NCBI GenBank assembly: GCA_002869265.1
Contig: PKTH01000019.1
Coordinates: 1 to 22,941 of the forward strand
Length of the DNA stretch: 22,941 nt
From: Candidatus Parcubacteria bacterium
GTDB taxonomy: Bacteria; Patescibacteriota; Patescibacteriia; Patescibacteriales; BM507
Reading direction: 5' to 3'
Shown here: positions 8,282 through 16,712 of the stretch, one piece after another
How the letters are laid out: the number at the start of each line of letters is the position of its first letter
How positions within the stretch are numbered: the stretch's first letter is position 1
Position numbers and translations under genes: made by a program
The notes under the pieces: model-generated
The model's input: only the letters and a program-made list of their open reading frames with translations
The model's database searches: none
Told to the model about the DNA's origin: nothing

Positions 8282-8309
8282 AAAAGACCCTACTGGGGTC
8301 TTTTTTATT
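8282..8309. terminator. Bidirectional intrinsic terminator
   Basis: AAGACCC-TACTG-GGGTCTT hairpin flanked by an A-run on the 5' side and a T-run on the 3' side. It lies between convergent genes. Confidence 0.6.
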
Positions 8310-8628
8310 TTTGCTTATTTCTCAATCTTATTATCGATATGAAAAATAGAAATATTACGAAAAGAAGAGTTAAGGAAGAAAAGGCGATGTAGTCTGTTAC
8401 GAAATTTTGCCCTTTTATAAAAATAGACAGTAAGGTTAAGTAGATAAATGCAAAAGGGAGGCCAATAATTATAGGGAGGAGTCGGTTGATAGTGCTTAGA
8501 CCTGTTTTTTCTTCACTTTGGATAGCCCCGCACTTTGCACATGATAATCTAAGATAAGAATGCTCACCATGTCTGTAAACTTCTGTTTTATGTCTTTTTA
8601 TTTCAGATCTACATTTTATACAATTCAT
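8305..8628 (-). CDS. Zinc-ribbon (CxxC...CxxC) protein with two C-terminal TM helices, hypothetical
   Basis: MNCIKCRSEI...CAKCGAIQ zinc ribbon, then a hydrophobic C-terminal half. Confidence 0.5.
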   Translation of the reverse strand: MNCIKCRSEIKRHKTEVYRHGEHSYLRLSCAKCGAIQSEEKTGLSTINRLLPIIIGLPFAFIYLTLLSIFIKGQNFVTDYIAFSSLTLLFVIFLFFISIIRLRNKQK

Positions 8629-8629
8629 A

Positions 8630-9064
8630 CTATTTTGATAAACACTCCCGAGCTTTAATGAATTCTAGGGCTTCAGGGGCGCTGCCGGCAATTATTTCAT
8701 CAGCTCTGGCTTGGCCAAGTTTTTCGATAAAGCAGGCTCCCATTTCTGGGCTAATGGTTTTTGGAAGATTTTCAATATTTACACCAAAGCTTTCTAGTTT
8801 TTTTTCTTGTTCTTCGTTTAGCAGAGGATTTTTATCTGAGCTTATTATCTCCTGCGCTTTAGGAATTACTTTTTCTTCAATAGTGTTTTTTGCATTTTCA
8901 ACAATATCCTCGTTTTCAATAAGTGTCTCGGTACTTAGATAGTGGTTGATTGCTATGCCAATTATTTTATTTCTTAGTTCGAAGGGATTGAAATATAAAA
9001 TCACCCCGATAATTAAAATGAGAAGAAATACGATGAGAACGAATAGTTGGAATGCTTTTTTCAT
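8630..9064 (-). CDS. Membrane-anchored hypothetical protein
   Basis: N-terminal TM helix (LFVLIVFLLILIIGVILYF) and an acidic soluble domain. Its stop overlaps the downstream gene start by 1 nt. Confidence 0.5.
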   Translation of the reverse strand: MKKAFQLFVLIVFLLILIIGVILYFNPFELRNKIIGIAINHYLSTETLIENEDIVENAKNTIEEKVIPKAQEIISSDKNPLLNEEQEKKLESFGVNIENLPKTISPEMGACFIEKLGQARADEIIAGSAPEALEFIKARECLSK

Positions 9065-9141: not shown

Positions 9142-9178
9142 AAACGGCTAAGTACGAAATGTACTTAGCCGTTTTTTC
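9142..9178. terminator. Intrinsic terminator downstream of copA
   Basis: CGGCTAAGTAC-GAAAT-GTACTTAGCCG 11-bp stem followed by TTTTTT on the plus strand and preceded by an A-rich tract. Confidence 0.55.
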
Positions 9179-9191
9179 ATTCTTTGGAAAT

Positions 9192-11348
9192 TTATTTTCG
9201 ATATATTCTGAGACTGTTTCCGATAATAGTTATGTCTGAAAAACTCATAGCCAAGGCTCCGACCATTGGATTTACAAAGCCCAAGATTGCCAAAGGGATA
9301 GCTAAGACATTGTAGAAAAAAGCCCAAAAGAGATTTTGTTTTATTATGTTGAAAGTTTTTCTAGAAAGCTTAATTGCTTCAGCGATTTTGATGGGGTCAT
9401 TTTTTAAAATAATAATATCTCCTGATTCTTTAGCAATATCAGATCCAGAGCCCATAGCAATGCCTAGGTCTGATTGAACTAGAGCAGGTGCATCGTTTAT
9501 ACCGTCACCTGCAAAAACCACTTTTTTGTCATTGGCTTGTATTTTTTTAATCTCGGCCAGTTTTTCGTTAGGAAGAACTTCGGCTATGAACTTTTTTATT
9601 CCTATGTTTTTTGCTACGACTGAAGCCGGAGTTTTGCCATCTCCAGTTAACATGATTGTCTCAAGCCTCAGTCTGGATATCATAGAAATGGTTTCTTTAC
9701 TAGTCTTCTTAATTTCATCTGCTATAAAGACAGCTCCAATGACTTTGTTGCCGTGAGCTACAAAATTGATTGTAGCGCCATTATTTTTTTCTTGTCTTAA
9801 AACCAATTTGGCCCAAGTGGTATCAATTTTCTTTTCTTCTAGTAATTTAATATTGCCAAGAAAAAGCTGAGTTTCGTGTGTTTTACAATTTGCTCCAATT
9901 CCAAGGCCTGCGTATTCTTTAAAATCTTTCATTTCAACCAGTTTGGATTTTTTAGATTTAGCATATTTTAAGATCGCCTTTGAAAGAGGGTGATCTGAGT
10001 TTTTGGCCAGTGAGCCAGCCACTTTAATAAGTTGTTCTTCCGGAGTCTTGTTGCAAAGAATCTTTTGGACACTCGGCTCACCCTTAGTAAGAGTGCCCGT
10101 TTTGTCAAAAACAACAGTGTCAATATTTTTTGCTTTTTCAAAACTTTCTCCATTTTTTATCAATATGCCGTTTCTTGCTCCAACACTAGTGCCAATCATA
10201 ATAGCTATAGGGGTTGCGATGCCAAGAGCACAAGGGCATGAGATAATAAGAACAGCTACGGCATTGATTAAACTTCTTTCAATATCACCACTTATCATAT
10301 ACCAAGACAAAAAGGTTAGACCAGCAATTGAGATAACAACTGGGACAAAAATGCCAGCAATCTTATCGGCTAGTTTTTGCATTGGAGCTTTATAAATTTG
10401 CGCCTCCTCGACAGTTTTAATGATTTGGGCCAGCATGGTTTCACTTTGTTTTTTTGTAACACATACTTTCAGAACTCCATTTAGGTTGATAGTTGCTCCA
10501 AAAACTTCATTATTAATTTTTTTGGAAATTGGCATGCTTTCACCGGTGAGCATGGACTCATCGATATTTGAAACCCCTTCAACAATTTTACCATCTAGAG
10601 GTATTTTCTCTCCTGGTTTAATTAAGAGAGTTTCTCCAACTGATATATTTTCGACTTCAAGCTCTATTTCTTTTCCATCTCGAATAACTTTAGCCTTTTT
10701 CACTCCTAGCTCCATTAGTTTTTCCATTGCTCTTGAAGCTTTATTTTTAGTTTTCATTTCAAGAAAGCGCCCCAAAAGAATAAGAGTAGCTATAGTGGCT
10801 GCGCTCTCAAAATATATATGGCCACCATTAAACATTGCCCAGAGACTATAGAAATAGGCCGATAGTGTTCCTACGGATATTAGGGTGTCCATATCGGCTC
10901 TTTTATTTAAGAGGGATTTAAAAGCATTTTTGTGGAACTGCCAGCCAAAGACAAAAACCACTAAAAATGACAAGTCGTGTTGAATCCAATTTGTCAGACT
11001 TACTCCCAGGAACGATCCTGGGACTTCCCACATCCAAAACATTCTGATAAATATTGGAAGAGTAAGAATGATTGAGGCAATTACTTTCAAGTATAAAAAC
11101 TTTTCCTCAGAATTTTTTTCTTCTTTCTCTGGAGAGTTGGGGTCTTTTATCTCAAAACCGGTCCCTTTTATAATATTTTTTATTTGTTCTAGATCTATTT
11201 GAGACTCATCGTATTCAAAGATTGCTTTCTTGGTAGCAAAATTTACATCTGCTTTCTGTATGGCATTGTTTTTCTTTAAGGCGATAACAATGCTTTGAGC
11301 ACAGCTCGCGCAGGTCATACCTGCTATATTTAATGTATTATTTTTCAT
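9192..11348 (-). CDS. copA: Copper-translocating P1B-type ATPase CopA
   Basis: N-terminal HMA domain GMTCASC, the CPC motif (SCPCALGIATP), DKTGTLT phosphorylation site, and GDGINDAP hinge. The start is placed at the MKNNTL ATG (11348) rather than the track's 11420, which would overlap the upstream gene. Confidence 0.88.
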   Translation of the reverse strand: MKNNTLNIAGMTCASCAQSIVIALKKNNAIQKADVNFATKKAIFEYDESQIDLEQIKNIIKGTGFEIKDPNSPEKEEKNSEEKFLYLKVIASIILTLPIFIRMFWMWEVPGSFLGVSLTNWIQHDLSFLVVFVFGWQFHKNAFKSLLNKRADMDTLISVGTLSAYFYSLWAMFNGGHIYFESAATIATLILLGRFLEMKTKNKASRAMEKLMELGVKKAKVIRDGKEIELEVENISVGETLLIKPGEKIPLDGKIVEGVSNIDESMLTGESMPISKKINNEVFGATINLNGVLKVCVTKKQSETMLAQIIKTVEEAQIYKAPMQKLADKIAGIFVPVVISIAGLTFLSWYMISGDIERSLINAVAVLIISCPCALGIATPIAIMIGTSVGARNGILIKNGESFEKAKNIDTVVFDKTGTLTKGEPSVQKILCNKTPEEQLIKVAGSLAKNSDHPLSKAILKYAKSKKSKLVEMKDFKEYAGLGIGANCKTHETQLFLGNIKLLEEKKIDTTWAKLVLRQEKNNGATINFVAHGNKVIGAVFIADEIKKTSKETISMISRLRLETIMLTGDGKTPASVVAKNIGIKKFIAEVLPNEKLAEIKKIQANDKKVVFAGDGINDAPALVQSDLGIAMGSGSDIAKESGDIIILKNDPIKIAEAIKLSRKTFNIIKQNLFWAFFYNVLAIPLAILGFVNPMVGALAMSFSDITIIGNSLRIYRK

Positions 11349-11359
11349 TTGATTTGTTA

Positions 11360-12847
11360 TTAATTTCCGCAGCCTCCACCGCAAGACCCACCGCAAGACC
11401 CACCACATGAACCGTCGCAACTTGAGGCTCCACTTTCTTTACCAAGACTGGCCGCTGAGACTGGGAGGGGATCTTTTATGATTGATCCTGATTTTGTACC
11501 AGCCTCTACTACAATAAACTTACCCCAAACCATTCTCATCCAGCAGCTAAATTTTAGCTCTCCAAGTTTTGTTGGAGTGAATTCAATTATAGTTTCTTTT
11601 TGATTTAGTTTTCTCTTGATTGTCCCAGTTTCGTGATAAAGAAATATTTCATTTGTACAGCCAGTAACTCCTTTGTCTAGTATTTTCCACCTAACTGGTA
11701 TGTCTTTCTCAATATAAATTACATTTGGCTGATAACCTGAATAGGTAACATCCATCTCAATTGTTTGGACATCTTTATTGGTTTCAAGCGGTTCGGACAA
11801 GGACCCCTCGGCTTTGATGAGAGATGTTTTGAAGCCAACTCCAAAATTGGTTAAACCTCTATTGACCATCACCACCCCCAGTAAAACCACTATTGCTCCT
11901 GAGACTTTAATAATTTTTTTAACTCGAGCACCACTAAGCATACTGATTACAGTTCCAAAGCCAAACATTAAGGGGATTGTCCCAAGTGCATAGAGAAACA
12001 TTGAAATAGCTCCCTGGGCGACACTTCCTGTTGTTAGGGCATATAGTTGCATTGCTTGCAGGGGACCGCAAGGCATAAAACCAGTGAGTAATCCAACAAG
12101 AAGTGGCCCTTTTGGTTTTGAGCTATTTTTATTTTTGTATAGATACTTTGCAATAAACTCAAAAGAGCCGAAAATCTTTGATAGTTTTTTGAGATGTTTG
12201 TTGTTAGTAAAAATAGACAAACCCATAAAGATCATCAAGATCCCTGCAACCAAAAGCAGTGCCCCTGAAAAGCTTGGGTTAACACCGAAAAATGAACCAA
12301 AACCTCCCAAAACTGCTCCAATTATAGTGTATGAGATTAGTCTGCCTAGATTGTATTGAAAATGTTTTTTTGATTCTTTGTTATTTGTGCTCTTTTTGCC
12401 AGCAACAGTATATGAAACCACGAGTCCACCGCACATACCAACACAATGAAAGCTAGCCAGAAAACCAATAAGGATGATTAGGGGATAGCTTACGCTAGAT
12501 TCATTTAGTTTAGCTAGTATTTCAAAAGTTCCTAAAAATTGAATCAGAAAGTATGCAAAAGCAAAAATTAGTAATAGCGAAATCCCTAAAATAATTTTAT
12601 AAGTAGCCGAAACTTCTTTTTTTTCTTGTCCGTGCCTTGAATAATCCTTTGGTGTATATCCAAGCTCGGTGATTTTTTTGAAAACCAGGTCTTTAGCTTT
12701 TTTATTAGCAATCTTTAGAGTAGCTTCCTCGTTGACGTAGTCTACTGAAATACTTTGAACGCCGTTTATATGATTTACCTCTTCTTCGATTAAGCTTTTG
12801 CATGATTTACAATGTATGCCAAGAATCTTTATTTTAAGTTTTTGCAT
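11360..12847 (-). CDS. Fusion protein: HMA metal-binding domain, then a UreH/DsbD_2-like permease core, then a cupredoxin-like C-terminal domain, then a Cys/Gly-rich tail
   Basis: N-terminal GIHCKSC HMA motif. The membrane core carries FHCVGMCGG and FMPCGPLQAMQ motifs. The C-terminal domain resembles cupredoxin strands (KFSCWMRMVWGKFIVVE). The tail is SSCDGSCGGSCGGSCGGGCGN. Confidence 0.6.
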   Translation of the reverse strand: MQKLKIKILGIHCKSCKSLIEEEVNHINGVQSISVDYVNEEATLKIANKKAKDLVFKKITELGYTPKDYSRHGQEKKEVSATYKIILGISLLLIFAFAYFLIQFLGTFEILAKLNESSVSYPLIILIGFLASFHCVGMCGGLVVSYTVAGKKSTNNKESKKHFQYNLGRLISYTIIGAVLGGFGSFFGVNPSFSGALLLVAGILMIFMGLSIFTNNKHLKKLSKIFGSFEFIAKYLYKNKNSSKPKGPLLVGLLTGFMPCGPLQAMQLYALTTGSVAQGAISMFLYALGTIPLMFGFGTVISMLSGARVKKIIKVSGAIVVLLGVVMVNRGLTNFGVGFKTSLIKAEGSLSEPLETNKDVQTIEMDVTYSGYQPNVIYIEKDIPVRWKILDKGVTGCTNEIFLYHETGTIKRKLNQKETIIEFTPTKLGELKFSCWMRMVWGKFIVVEAGTKSGSIIKDPLPVSAASLGKESGASSCDGSCGGSCGGSCGGGCGN

Positions 12848-12890: not shown

Positions 12891-12909
12891 ATACCTCCCC
12901 CCTAGGTAT
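12891..12909. promoter_or_regulatory. Candidate CsoR operator (ATACC-C7-TAGGTAT pseudo-palindrome)
   Basis: ATACCTCCCCCCCTAGGTAT has inverted ATACC/GGTAT arms around a G/C homopolymer. This resembles known CsoR operators (TACC...GGGGG...GGTA). It sits about 9-27 nt downstream of the -10 of the promoter for the permease-copA transcript. Confidence 0.45.
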
Positions 12910-12917
12910 GTAATATG

Positions 12918-12946
12918 ATTTTATTCTTCTTTTTTATTCTTGTCAA
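12918..12946 (-). promoter_or_regulatory. Sigma70-like promoter for the HMA-permease/copA transcript (TTGACA-N17-TAAAAT on the minus strand)
   Basis: Reverse-complement reading: TTGACA (plus 12941-12946), 17-nt spacer, TAAAAT (plus 12918-12923). Confidence 0.45.
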
Positions 12947-13020: not shown

Positions 13021-13239
13021 TTATTTTACGCTAAAACTTTTTATACCATAGCCGAGAGATTTTAATTTTTTGAATGAATTGTTCTTTGCTTCGTCTGAGT
13101 TTACTACTAAAACAGCGTTCTCTTTTATGTGATTAACATTAATTTTCTGAACTCCTTCTATGTCTTTAAGTTCTGTTTCTATGATCAGTTTGCAAGACAT
13201 GCAGTGGAGATTGCTTAGTTCAAGTTTGATGGTTTGCAT
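13021..13239 (-). CDS. copZ: Copper chaperone CopZ (HMA domain)
   Basis: 72 aa with the MxCxxC motif (LHCMSCK) and the ferredoxin-like HMA fold pattern. Confidence 0.8.
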   Translation of the reverse strand: MQTIKLELSNLHCMSCKLIIETELKDIEGVQKINVNHIKENAVLVVNSDEAKNNSFKKLKSLGYGIKSFSVK

Positions 13240-13248
13240 AAAAAAGGA

Positions 13249-13521
13249 TTACTTGTTTGAAAATTTATTTACTTTAATTATTTCATCAATCATTTTTTGT
13301 TTAAGTTCTTCATTTTTGGCAGCCATAGCATTCTTAAAACAAGTATTAAGGTGTTTTTTAAGCACTTCTTGATGAGCTGACTTTAAAAGCCCAATAACCG
13401 CAAGGTTTTGTTGCATCACGTCTACACAATATTCCTTATTCTCAATCATGTCTATTATTTTGTTGATAAGACTTCTAGCCTTTTTGAGACTAATAAGTAC
13501 TTTCTTGTCATCCATGCTCAT
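13249..13521 (-). CDS. csoR: CsoR/RcnR-family copper-sensing transcriptional repressor
   Basis: 90 aa, DUF156-like. It has the C-H-C fingerprint (YCVDV ... SAHQEV ... NTC) at CsoR-typical spacing. It lies immediately upstream of copZ. Confidence 0.8.
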   Translation of the reverse strand: MSMDDKKVLISLKKARSLINKIIDMIENKEYCVDVMQQNLAVIGLLKSAHQEVLKKHLNTCFKNAMAAKNEELKQKMIDEIIKVNKFSNK

Positions 13522-13551: not shown

Positions 13552-13580
13552 AGTATATTATTCAATTAGTTGCTTGTCAA
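13552..13580 (-). promoter_or_regulatory. Sigma70-like promoter for csoR-copZ (TTGACA-N17-TATACT on the minus strand)
   Basis: Reverse complement of plus 13575-13580 is TTGACA; 17-nt spacer; reverse complement of 13552-13557 is TATACT. A divergent TTGACA box at 13589-13594 would serve the plus-strand gene. Confidence 0.35.
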
Positions 13581-15237: not shown

Positions 15238-15735
15238 TTATTTTAGAGCATCACTAAGAGTGGCACTCATCGAAGCAGGGAAACTAACAATAATTATTCT
15301 TTTTATGGCGAGGATATTATCTATACCCCAGGGGCATTTATCAATAATTGTTAGAAGTATTCCAACCACTATCAATGAAAGGCCATAGGTGACTAAAATT
15401 CTTTTTATATATTCGAACCAAAGTTTTTTGAGCTGGTCTTTGTAGAATCTTAAATAAAGGAACAAACCAATAAATAAAACCGACACTAAAGAAAGTAGAA
15501 GCACTCTATTAAGAGAAAGACTTTCTCCTAGCTTCCATGTCTCTTCTGTAAACCCAAGAGGGATGCTAAGGAGAGTGGCCCCAATTATGATTTGAGCAAC
15601 ATCACTTAGGTGAAGCTCCACTTTGAAACTTCTTACAGTGTGGTTAATGATGTTTCCTGCTTCATCAAGCACAGGAATAACTTTTAGAAGATAGCCATTC
15701 TTTATGCTTATTTTTGGCTGTATTTTTTCTTGCAT
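15238..15735 (-). CDS. Integral membrane protein, hypothetical (about 4 TM helices)
   Basis: 165 aa with hydrophobic stretches IIIGATLLSIPLGF, VLLLSLVSVLFIGLFLYL and GLSLIVVGILLTII. Confidence 0.5.
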   Translation of the reverse strand: MQEKIQPKISIKNGYLLKVIPVLDEAGNIINHTVRSFKVELHLSDVAQIIIGATLLSIPLGFTEETWKLGESLSLNRVLLLSLVSVLFIGLFLYLRFYKDQLKKLWFEYIKRILVTYGLSLIVVGILLTIIDKCPWGIDNILAIKRIIIVSFPASMSATLSDALK

Positions 15736-15862: not shown

Positions 15863-16114
15863 CTAAAAACCCTCTTTGACTTCAATGACTTCATCTGCGT
15901 CTCCACCGTGTGCTTCATGGTGGACGGCTGCTGCAGCTTCTTTGTTTGGGGCTTCGCACAGACAAAAGACTTTTTCTTCTTTTTCGTTGTACCAATATGA
16001 ATGAAACTTCACTCCATGCTTTGCCTGTACGGCTAAATCTTTTTTGTGAGCTTCTTCCAACCCCTCTTTTGTAATTCCTTTTGCATTTTTATGAATATCC
16101 ATGTAAAGAGGCAT
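15863..16114 (-). CDS. DUF4242 (SCO4226-like) small metal-binding protein
   Basis: 83 aa. MPLYMDIH...GVKF..YW..E...VFCLCEAP.KEAAAAVHHEAHGG..DEVIEV matches the DUF4242 family pattern, judged from memory. Confidence 0.6.
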   Translation of the reverse strand: MPLYMDIHKNAKGITKEGLEEAHKKDLAVQAKHGVKFHSYWYNEKEEKVFCLCEAPNKEAAAAVHHEAHGGDADEVIEVKEGF

Positions 16115-16268: not shown

Positions 16269-16712
16269 ATGAAACAAAATAAATCTTTATCATTAATTTT
16301 AATAATTCTTTCTTTGGGAATTTTTTTAACAGCCTGTACCACCCCACAAAACAATAGTAATGTTGTAAGCAACACCACAGATAACAACTCTATTATTGAA
16401 GATGAGAGTATGGATGAAAGCGATGTCGTAACATTCCAGTTGACTGGGGTAAACTTTAGTTTTTTGATGGATGGAGAAGAGGCTCCAGAGATTAGAGTGA
16501 AAGAAGGGCAGAAGGTTCGAATTGAACTCACTAGCACAGAGGGTTTTCATGACTTTGTTTTAGATGAATTCTTTGTAGCATCAGACAAGGTCGCTTTGAA
16601 TGAGTCAACATCGGTTGAATTTGTAGCAGACCAGAAAGGAACCTTTGAGTATTATTGTTCTGTTGGTAGCCATAGAGCTCAGGGGATGGTTGGAAATTTT
16701 ATAGTTGAATAG
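16269..16712 (+). CDS. Cupredoxin-domain lipoprotein (type-1 copper site C-x4-H-x4-M)
   Basis: Signal peptide with lipobox LTAC. C-terminal YYCSVGSHRAQGMVGNFIVE with an upstream HDF motif is typical of Cupredoxin_1/plastocyanin-like proteins. Confidence 0.75.
   Translation: MKQNKSLSLILIILSLGIFLTACTTPQNNSNVVSNTTDNNSIIEDESMDESDVVTFQLTGVNFSFLMDGEEAPEIRVKEGQKVRIELTSTEGFHDFVLDEFFVASDKVALNESTSVEFVADQKGTFEYYCSVGSHRAQGMVGNFIVE

Follow-up and report, generated by a model that had tools for sequence, protein, structure and literature searches.

A copA-linked membrane protein with HMA, DsbD_2 and CupA-type cupredoxin domains, predicted to be under CsoR control in a Parcubacterium

The window analysed here, by which we mean the whole stretch of 22,941 nucleotides, is contig PKTH01000019.1 of a Candidatus Parcubacteria bacterium (assembly GCA_002869265.1) and contains a copper locus. 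At its centre lies an open reading frame (ORF) for a 495-amino-acid protein (positions 11360-12847, minus strand; ATG start, stop codon at 11360-11362), flanked by the gene for a 72-residue HMA protein, copZ, on one side and that for a P1B ATPase with a CPC motif, copA, on the other. Read from the amino terminus, the product consists of an HMA domain, an extra transmembrane (TM) helix termed TM0, a six-helix DsbD_2 core, a CupA-type cupredoxin domain, a linker and a tail with five cysteines. A first-pass annotation, made by a model from the DNA and its translations alone, had described four elements (HMA, permease, cupredoxin-like domain and Cys-rich tail) in a single ORF between copZ and copA and had assigned them to a copper locus. 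The ORF, its neighbours and its parts are all present: the motifs GIHCKSC, HCVGMCGG, MPCGPLQAMQ and FSCWMRMVWGKFIVVE and the tail SSCDGSCGGSCGGSCGGGCGN are found in the translation, and a CsoR-type operator, copZ, csoR and copA surround the gene. Within a very large, already catalogued family, whose members are usually mislabelled as sulfite exporters and are encoded beside copper-exporting pumps in many bacteria and archaea, the protein is an ordinary case; it most likely handles copper on both membrane faces. Compared with the first reading, the picture is now sharper in that the carboxy-terminal domain is of the CupA type, is predicted to lie outside the cell and is encoded behind a predicted CsoR operator.

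Domain layout and membrane topology

The HMA domain (residues 1-70; 12638-12847, minus strand) has the β-α-β-β-α-β fold and is predicted to be cytoplasmic. The Pfam scan of the ORF product places HMA (PF00403) at residues 7-50 with an E-value of 6.8e-8, and the metal-binding motif G-x-H-C13-K-S-C16 contains two cysteines that are both invariant among 60 homologues. Both the fold and the metal-binding loop of HMA domains (G-M/x-x-C-x-x-C) are thus found at the amino terminus, which bears out the earlier assignment of a CopZ-like domain with GIHCKSC. Among the NCBIfam models, those for MerTP, the MerT/CopZ fusion and MerA are matched by this domain.

The membrane core (residues 122-331; 11855-12484, minus strand) has six helices, with TM1 and TM4 broken at Cys motifs; in the AlphaFold2 (AF2) model the breaks fall at residues 138-140 and 256-261. 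Its Pfam match to DsbD_2 (PF13386) covers residues 124-326 and profile positions 2-199 of 199 (E = 4.1e-50, 170.9 bits), and DsbD_TM is matched more weakly (E = 1.3e-6). A full-length profile match and six helices with conserved cysteines in TM1 and TM4 are both found, which identifies the core as DsbD_2-type, as first proposed from HCVGMCGG and MPCGPLQAMQ, and not as part of an unrelated transporter family devoid of Cys motifs. In the TM1 motif H134-C135-V-G-M138-C139-G140 (12428-12448, minus strand) the H, C, G, M, C and G are invariant in the 60 sequences, with HCxxMC kept in 119 of 120 close homologues and 134 of 148 representatives; the TM4 motif M258-P259-C260-G-P262-L263-Q264 (12056-12076, minus strand) is invariant as well. 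The residues invariant among the 60 homologues are nearly all soft-metal ligands (C13 and C16; H134, C135, M138 and C139; M258 and C260; C397, C435, M437 and M439), and a cluster of H162, Y165, N166 and R169 at the cytoplasmic end of TM2 is also conserved as invariant. No cysteines other than C135 and C260 are universal across distant relatives, among them relatives with nothing but the core. The search for a solved close relative of the core found none, CcdA (PDB 5VKV) scoring a non-significant E-value of 4.4. UreH proteins are putative nickel transporters (PMC2667541); the label of a UreH-like nickel permease, tried for this core, remains a name only.

Hydropathy analysis and the AF2 model agree on seven helices, TM0 and the six of the core. 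TM0 (residues 84-106; 12530-12598, minus strand) was delimited by hydropathy and the Lys+Arg bias and corresponds to a helix at residues 81-105 of the model. The loops after TM1, TM3 and TM5 of the ORF product hold 17 Lys and Arg residues against one in the alternate loops, and the means for the 60 homologues are 19.5 inside and 3.0 outside. Furthermore, in two methanotroph homologues a LysM domain, which binds peptidoglycan, is located carboxy-terminal to the cupredoxin (Methylocystis, locus L045, 6001-7539; Methylocella, locus L067, 4411-6057). Because of the charge distribution in this protein and its homologues and of the methanotroph LysM domains, the HMA domain is predicted to be inside the cell and the cupredoxin and tail outside it, which provides the placement that the first-pass annotation had called for. 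On this predicted topology, TM0 serves only to bring the HMA domain to the cytoplasmic face, the core's own amino terminus facing outward. A Deinococcus variant consists of core and cupredoxin with no fused HMA and has a separate HMA gene directly after it.

The cupredoxin domain (residues 352-448; 11504-11794, minus strand), predicted to be extracytoplasmic, matches Cupredoxin_1 (PF13473) at residues 357-446 with an E-value of 4.7e-6 and a score exactly at the gathering cut-off. A sequence search against solved structures pointed to a more specific relationship: the closest match is the Streptococcus pneumoniae CupA / CopA N-terminal metal-binding domain (PDB 4F2E, 2MRY, 4F2F), with E-values of 3.2e-8 for CupA (2MRY/4F2E) and 7.6e-8 for the cupredoxin-type metal-binding domain of CopA (4F2F), and the CupA match improves to 5.7e-18 when a family profile is used. 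The low-affinity site of CupA consists of C74, M113 and M115 (PMC5646241, PMC7558416). In the alignment with CupA, C397 (11657-11659, minus strand) and C435-W-M437-R-M439 (11531-11545, minus strand) fall on the CupA ligands and are therefore candidate Cu(I) ligands; the C-x-M-x-M motif is present in 120 of 120 close homologues and 147 of 148 representatives. With CupA as the closest fold and the ligands conserved, sequence comparison identifies the domain, including its end at FSCWMRMVWGKFIVVE, as CupA-type and not as a generic cupredoxin, a refinement of the cupredoxin-like domain first suggested. Other attributes of CupA are lacking. CupA is a protein of about 120 amino acids with a single amino-terminal anchor that is cytoplasmic and acts on a CopA with a matching cupredoxin domain, whereas the domain described here is the carboxy terminus of a seven-helix protein, is predicted to be outside, and has as its partner a CopA with an ordinary HMA domain. 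A homologue from Falkowbacteria (locus L009, 6001-7350) has lost the copper ligands of the cupredoxin, having FSCWREIIWGKF where C-x-M-x-M would be and lacking a Cys at the position of the first ligand, yet it is still located between csoR and copA.

Operon, predicted control and gene neighbourhoods

The gene copA (9192-11345, minus strand) codes for a P1B-1 Cu(I) ATPase that has a CPC motif, DKTGT and a single N-terminal HMA domain, and its start lies 14 nt beyond the ORF's stop codon. Judging from the sequence, translation probably begins at the ATG at 11345, the first codon of MKNNTLNIAGMTCASC, and not at the listed TTG at 11420, which overlaps the tail. On the other side of the ORF are the gene for the CopZ-like, free-standing HMA protein of 72 amino acids (13021-13239, minus strand; assigned by Pfam) and that for a CsoR-family repressor of 90 amino acids (13249-13521, minus strand; Pfam Trns_repr_metal, E = 2.9e-16) with the Cu(I) ligand pattern C32...H57-x3-C61. 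Between copZ and the ORF there is a possible terminator hairpin, followed by a promoter-like TTGACA-17 nt-TAAAAT (12918-12946, minus strand; 11 of 12 matches) that would serve both the ORF and copA. Directly after its -10 hexamer and before the start codon of the ORF is a predicted operator of the CsoR type (12891-12909, no strand assigned), ATACCT-CCCCCC-TAGGTAT, in which a perfect inverted repeat encloses a G/C tract. A box of the same outline, ATACC-N9-GGTAT, precedes csoR by about 45-120 nt in nine related operons of the csoR-target-copA type (loci L001, L002, L003, L005, L010, L011, L015, L017 and L019). Since promoter and operator precede the ORF and relatives have the same box in their operons, and with a C-H-C CsoR encoded nearby, the ORF and copA appear to form a unit that is predicted to be repressed by CsoR and induced by copper. 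In the window the box precedes the target and not csoR, and the promoter of csoR and copZ (13552-13580) has no such box; for this reason csoR may not be auto-regulated here. A second exact match to the box (21865-21883) lies inside an ORF, has no G/C tract and was judged to be due to chance. Directly after copA, a strong hairpin of 14-15 bp (9142-9174), terminator-like in both directions, lies between the operon and two small ORFs (8630-9064 and 8305-8628) that are unannotated and gave no Pfam match.

The first-pass suggestion of a copper-uptake or copper-delivery partner for CopA holds as far as copper is concerned, but uptake fits poorly because the gene lies behind a CsoR-type operator and before the exporter gene copA. 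In an importer, the cupredoxin and tail would capture Cu(I) outside and the core would pass it inward to the HMA domain and CopZ for use by cuproproteins, a mirror of the MerP-MerT-NmerA route for mercury. The order of the domains is indeed the mirror image of the Mer relay, the HMA domain matches the MerTP and MerA models, free cytosolic copper is extremely low and passive flux would be inward, and the cop operon has a gene for a plastocyanin-like lipoprotein 3.4 kb away. A CsoR-type operator, however, would be derepressed at high cytosolic Cu(I), the gene appears to be co-transcribed with that of the exporter across the 14-nt gap, other phyla cluster it with copA and a two-component system, and the nearby cuproprotein is extracytoplasmic, for which import is not needed. 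We regard import as very improbable. The plastocyanin/azurin-like protein itself (16269-16712, plus strand; 147 amino acids, Copper-bind E = 1.4e-5) has a lipoprotein-type signal (…LTAC) and a C-x4-H-x4-M ending and, from these features, would be an extracytoplasmic cuproprotein that needs copper outside the cell. Genes for an SCO4226-like 'nickel responsive' protein (15863-16114, minus strand; E = 3.7e-22) and a DUF2391 membrane protein (15238-15735, minus strand), located between purF and the plastocyanin-like gene, may constitute a small metal-related neighbourhood.

Homologues are abundant. A search of one database gave more than 4774 matches, the best of them 63% identical; among the top 120, nearly all have precomputed HMA and DsbD_2 assignments and most have Cupredoxin_1 too. 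An exhaustive search yielded 849 clusters at 50% identity (E<=1e-30), and a scan of one genome per species at least 591 loci. As thousands of relatives have the same architecture, its first description as unusual was dropped. Matches from named organisms are mostly Patescibacteria, and the majority are called 'sulfite exporter TauE/SafE family protein'. This name is wrong, because no TauE profile matches: Pfam and NCBIfam scans of the ORF product gave no hit to TauE/SafE (PF01925) at E<=0.01, and the protein does not belong to that family. Besides Patescibacteria, carriers include DPANN archaea, Clostridia (Clostridium hominis, Lacrimispora, Anaeromicropila herbilytica, Caproiciproducens faecalis), Treponema primitia, Synergistales and methanotrophs.

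Gene neighbourhoods were counted in 80 fetched related loci, 72 of which have enough flanking sequence. The copA gene is on the same strand and downstream in 48 of the 80 loci; 56 of the 72 have it at a distance of at most 6 kb. In 17 of the 80, csoR is on the same strand and upstream (within 130 nt in 15 of them), nearly all of these being operons of the Patescibacteria type whatever the label of the metagenome-assembled genome (MAG). Three MAGs labelled 'uncultured Gammaproteobacteria' (L001, L002 and L010) contain the Patescibacteria-type csoR-target-copA operon at about 50% identity, and these bins are probably mislabelled. Outside the Patescibacteria-type operons, an OmpR-type response regulator and a histidine kinase are encoded in about 30 of the 80 loci. 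A gene for an FtrD-like/DUF2318 (PF10080) protein, whose domain is exported or anchored and contains a GGCNP and two CxxC motifs, adjoins the homologue in 29 of the 80, mostly in Firmicutes, Treponema and Synergistales (L072, 5245-5829; L074, 5294-5929; L033, 5382-5969; L069, 7591-8073; and 25 further loci). Only one Patescibacteria locus (L005) has it, and Patescibacteria are the group in which the five-Cys tail is common.

Proteins of the same family, catalogued as COG2836 (HMA + DsbD_2 + DUF2318), have been placed in the meta-regulon of CsoR in gut Firmicutes, occasionally linked to copA, and are listed there only as 'membrane protein / heavy metal transport', with no mention of the CupA-type domain, the topology or a mechanism (PMC4938975). 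The ORF product shares with them the HMA domain, the DsbD_2 core and the predicted control by CsoR, whereas the Patescibacteria form has a five-Cys tail and usually no DUF2318 partner.

Core-only relatives retain FHCIGMCGG or AHCIGMCGP and the TM4 cysteine, and core-only DsbD_2 genes are located immediately upstream of those for CPC-type P-type ATPases on pSymA of Sinorhizobium meliloti (L093, 4992-7930) and on a plasmid of the haloarchaeon Halalkalicoccus (L095, 4923-8202); therefore, the pairing of the core with a copper pump extends beyond the four-part architecture. The S. meliloti pair adjoins genes for a cbb3-type oxidase. The TM1 motif was considered as a marker of metal selectivity and set aside: core-only relatives keep HCxGMCG and their ATPases are CPC copper pumps too, and the comparison therefore does not discriminate between hypotheses. 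Such pairing, together with the tight and conserved gene order with copA, is what one would expect if the protein were a two-sided chaperone or scaffold of CopA through which nothing crosses, the core anchoring it and docking to the pump while the HMA domain feeds CopA inside like a tethered CopZ and the cupredoxin and tail take over Cu(I) outside, comparable to CusF or CopL. The importance of membrane tethering of the CupA chaperone for CopA function (PMC7558416) is compatible with this idea. Nevertheless, were the core no more than an anchor, six soft-metal ligands would not stay invariant in the middle of the membrane, nor would H162, Y165, N166 and R169, and CopA has its own HMA domain with a free CopZ encoded next door; we consider a pure scaffold improbable.

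Candidate mechanisms

Bacterial copper export is usually described in terms of CopZ and CopA, to which a few groups add CusF or CopL on the outside. The reading that we favour, with a probability of roughly 40%, is that the ORF product is a copper-induced accessory of CopA that passes Cu(I) along its thiolates in the manner of a 'bucket brigade'. Cu(I) would free the operator from CsoR, and the protein would be produced along with CopA. The CxxC of the cytoplasmic HMA domain would accept Cu(I) from the cytosol or from CopZ and pass it to a putative His/Cys/Met site in the membrane, where the broken TM1 (HCxxMCGG) and TM4 (MPCGP) meet. From there Cu(I) would move to the CupA-type site outside and then to the flexible five-Cys tail, which would buffer it extracellularly, possibly with the proton-motive force as the energy source, as for other LysE-superfamily exporters. 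The analysis itself yields the domain identities, the ligand conservation, the predicted topology, the operator and the linkage to copA; that metal rather than electrons passes through the core, that it travels outward and what drives it are steps that we infer.

Five considerations favour such a relay: two metallochaperone folds occupy opposite faces of the core; TM0 has the sole role of positioning the HMA domain at the inner face; that domain is persistently fused or encoded by an adjacent gene; the mid-membrane His and Met are invariant, although a pure disulfide shuttle does not need them; and the Mer-type relays are a precedent for combining HMA domains with thiol transporters. The near-complete conservation of the ligands, the predicted CsoR control and the linkage to copA, which core-only relatives share, point the same way. 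By analogy with the mercury systems, thiol-lined transporters fused to HMA domains can be regarded as an established design for soft metals. In MerT/MerP and MerTP, as here, a membrane protein that bears Cys and an HMA domain, either fused or as separate partners, make up a thiolate relay for a soft metal. The membrane parts are not homologous, however, and the Mer HMA is outside with transport inward to a cytoplasmic reductase, whereas the HMA domain of the ORF product is predicted to be inside, in the context of export.

The clan to which the core belongs suggests a different role. Like CcdA, DsbD and ScsB, which are in the same Pfam clan, it has six helices, amino and carboxy termini outside and one cysteine in each of the broken helices TM1 and TM4, and it could move reducing equivalents from cytoplasmic thioredoxin outward with no copper passing through it. 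The electrons would maintain the Cys of the tethered cupredoxin, of the five-Cys tail and of the FtrD-like partner found in other phyla in a reduced state, able to bind the Cu(I) expelled by CopA. Reductases of the DsbD family that serve copper-handling proteins are known, in Salmonella ScsB-ScsC-CueP and in CcdA/DsbD-TlpA-ScoI. Consistent with a reductant conduit are the clan membership itself (DsbD_2 at 4e-50, DsbD_TM at 1.3e-6), the restriction of universal cysteines to one in TM1 and one in TM4, and the Cys dependence of all the partners outside, namely the S1 site of the cupredoxin, the tail and the DUF2318/FtrD-like domain (PMC10783030); for CupA, moreover, re-reduction of its Cys has been proposed to be required after Cu(II) reduction (PMC5646241). 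The core nevertheless differs from CcdA, DsbD and ScsB in having an extra cysteine and the invariant intramembrane His and Met, and the ORF product has two metallochaperone folds flanking the core and no thioredoxin-like or immunoglobulin-like redox domains. A conduit for electrons gives no role to the cytoplasmic HMA domain, whether fused or adjacent, or to TM0, and leaves the invariant His134, Met138, second cysteine Cys139 and Met258 in the membrane unexplained. No thioredoxin-fold domain occurs in the scanned family members or in the scanned neighbouring genes, the similarity to the solved CcdA structure falls short of significance, and many carriers are anaerobes, for which thiol oxidation is less of a problem. 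We regard a reductant conduit as the main rival of the relay, though a somewhat unlikely one.

Several points weigh against the Cu(I) relay itself. The universal cysteines of TM1 and TM4, seen across distant relatives, are exactly the catalytic pair of CcdA, and the characterised members of the DsbD/CcdA clan, to our knowledge, carry reducing equivalents and not ions. A second path for copper export that is almost always encoded beside the ATP-driven one lacks an obvious rationale, and an uncoupled channel would tend to admit Cu(I) and not to release it. The geometry of the intramembrane site is putative. Finally, in the literature on DsbD_2/PF13386, COG2836 and DUF2318 we found no functional study of the family.

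Whether the relay can be extended to the family at large, making HMA-DsbD_2-cupredoxin proteins an unrecognised class of ATP-independent Cu(I) translocators that work by a Mer-style relay and are standard partners of CopA in Patescibacteria, DPANN, Clostridia, spirochaetes and methanotrophs, seems to us doubtful. If either the relay or the reductant conduit proves true, present models lack a common component of copper resistance in anaerobes and in the small-genome lineages of the candidate phyla radiation (CPR) and DPANN. What deserves attention is the family, a neglected and widespread partner of CopA that is predicted to be copper-regulated, has a CupA-type Cu(I) site predicted on the outer face of the membrane and includes several cultured carriers, and not the copy found in the window.

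The cysteine tail and its 12-nt repeat

The cupredoxin is followed by a disordered linker (residues 449-474; 11426-11503, minus strand), in which the predicted local distance difference test (pLDDT) score of the model is below 50 from residue 458, and by the Cys/Gly-rich tail SSCDGSCGGSCGGSCGGGCGN (residues 475-495; 11363-11425, minus strand) with its five cysteines at 4-residue spacing. The tail is not confined to this genome, an extension of this kind being present in about 80% of close relatives. Exactly five tail cysteines are found in 73 of the 120 closest homologues, 43 of these 73 having the spacing C-x5-C-x3-C-x4-C-x-C; 19 of the 120 stop right after the cupredoxin and five run on into a second one. 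Other phyla vary at this point: they may have no extension, a short GGCC or CGCG motif, or a Cys-bearing linker with a second cupredoxin-like domain after it.

The coding region of the tail contains an exact tandem repeat (11376-11404, no strand assigned; period 12, 2.4 copies, 100% identity, Tandem Repeats Finder). The first-pass annotation had rightly noticed it, giving it 2.7 copies from position 11372, a count that took in a degenerate flank. Its run of 17 consecutive period-12 matches was equalled by none of 2000 codon shuffles of the tail DNA, and the repeat is therefore a real local duplication. Among relatives, the tails contain no DNA repeat of similar length, the longest period-12 run being 12 (L002) against 17 in the window, and the number of cysteines is conserved at five; the proposal that tail length varies by slippage thus finds no support among them. 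Judging from these sequences, the regular 4-4-4-4 spacing of the cysteines in the window was made by a lineage-specific duplication of 12 nt, and the tail, which the model shows as disordered, looks like a Cys cluster that is conserved yet optional and not like a length-variable slippage array. Metagenome contigs searched with a wobble-tolerant pattern for the lineage-specific linker peptide gave no match, and the collections yielded no close strain. The exact 29-mer of the repeat does occur in 12 marine metagenome contigs (L081-L092), with no homology to the protein; these contigs are nearly identical to one another around the 29-nt match, and the region itself is repetitive.

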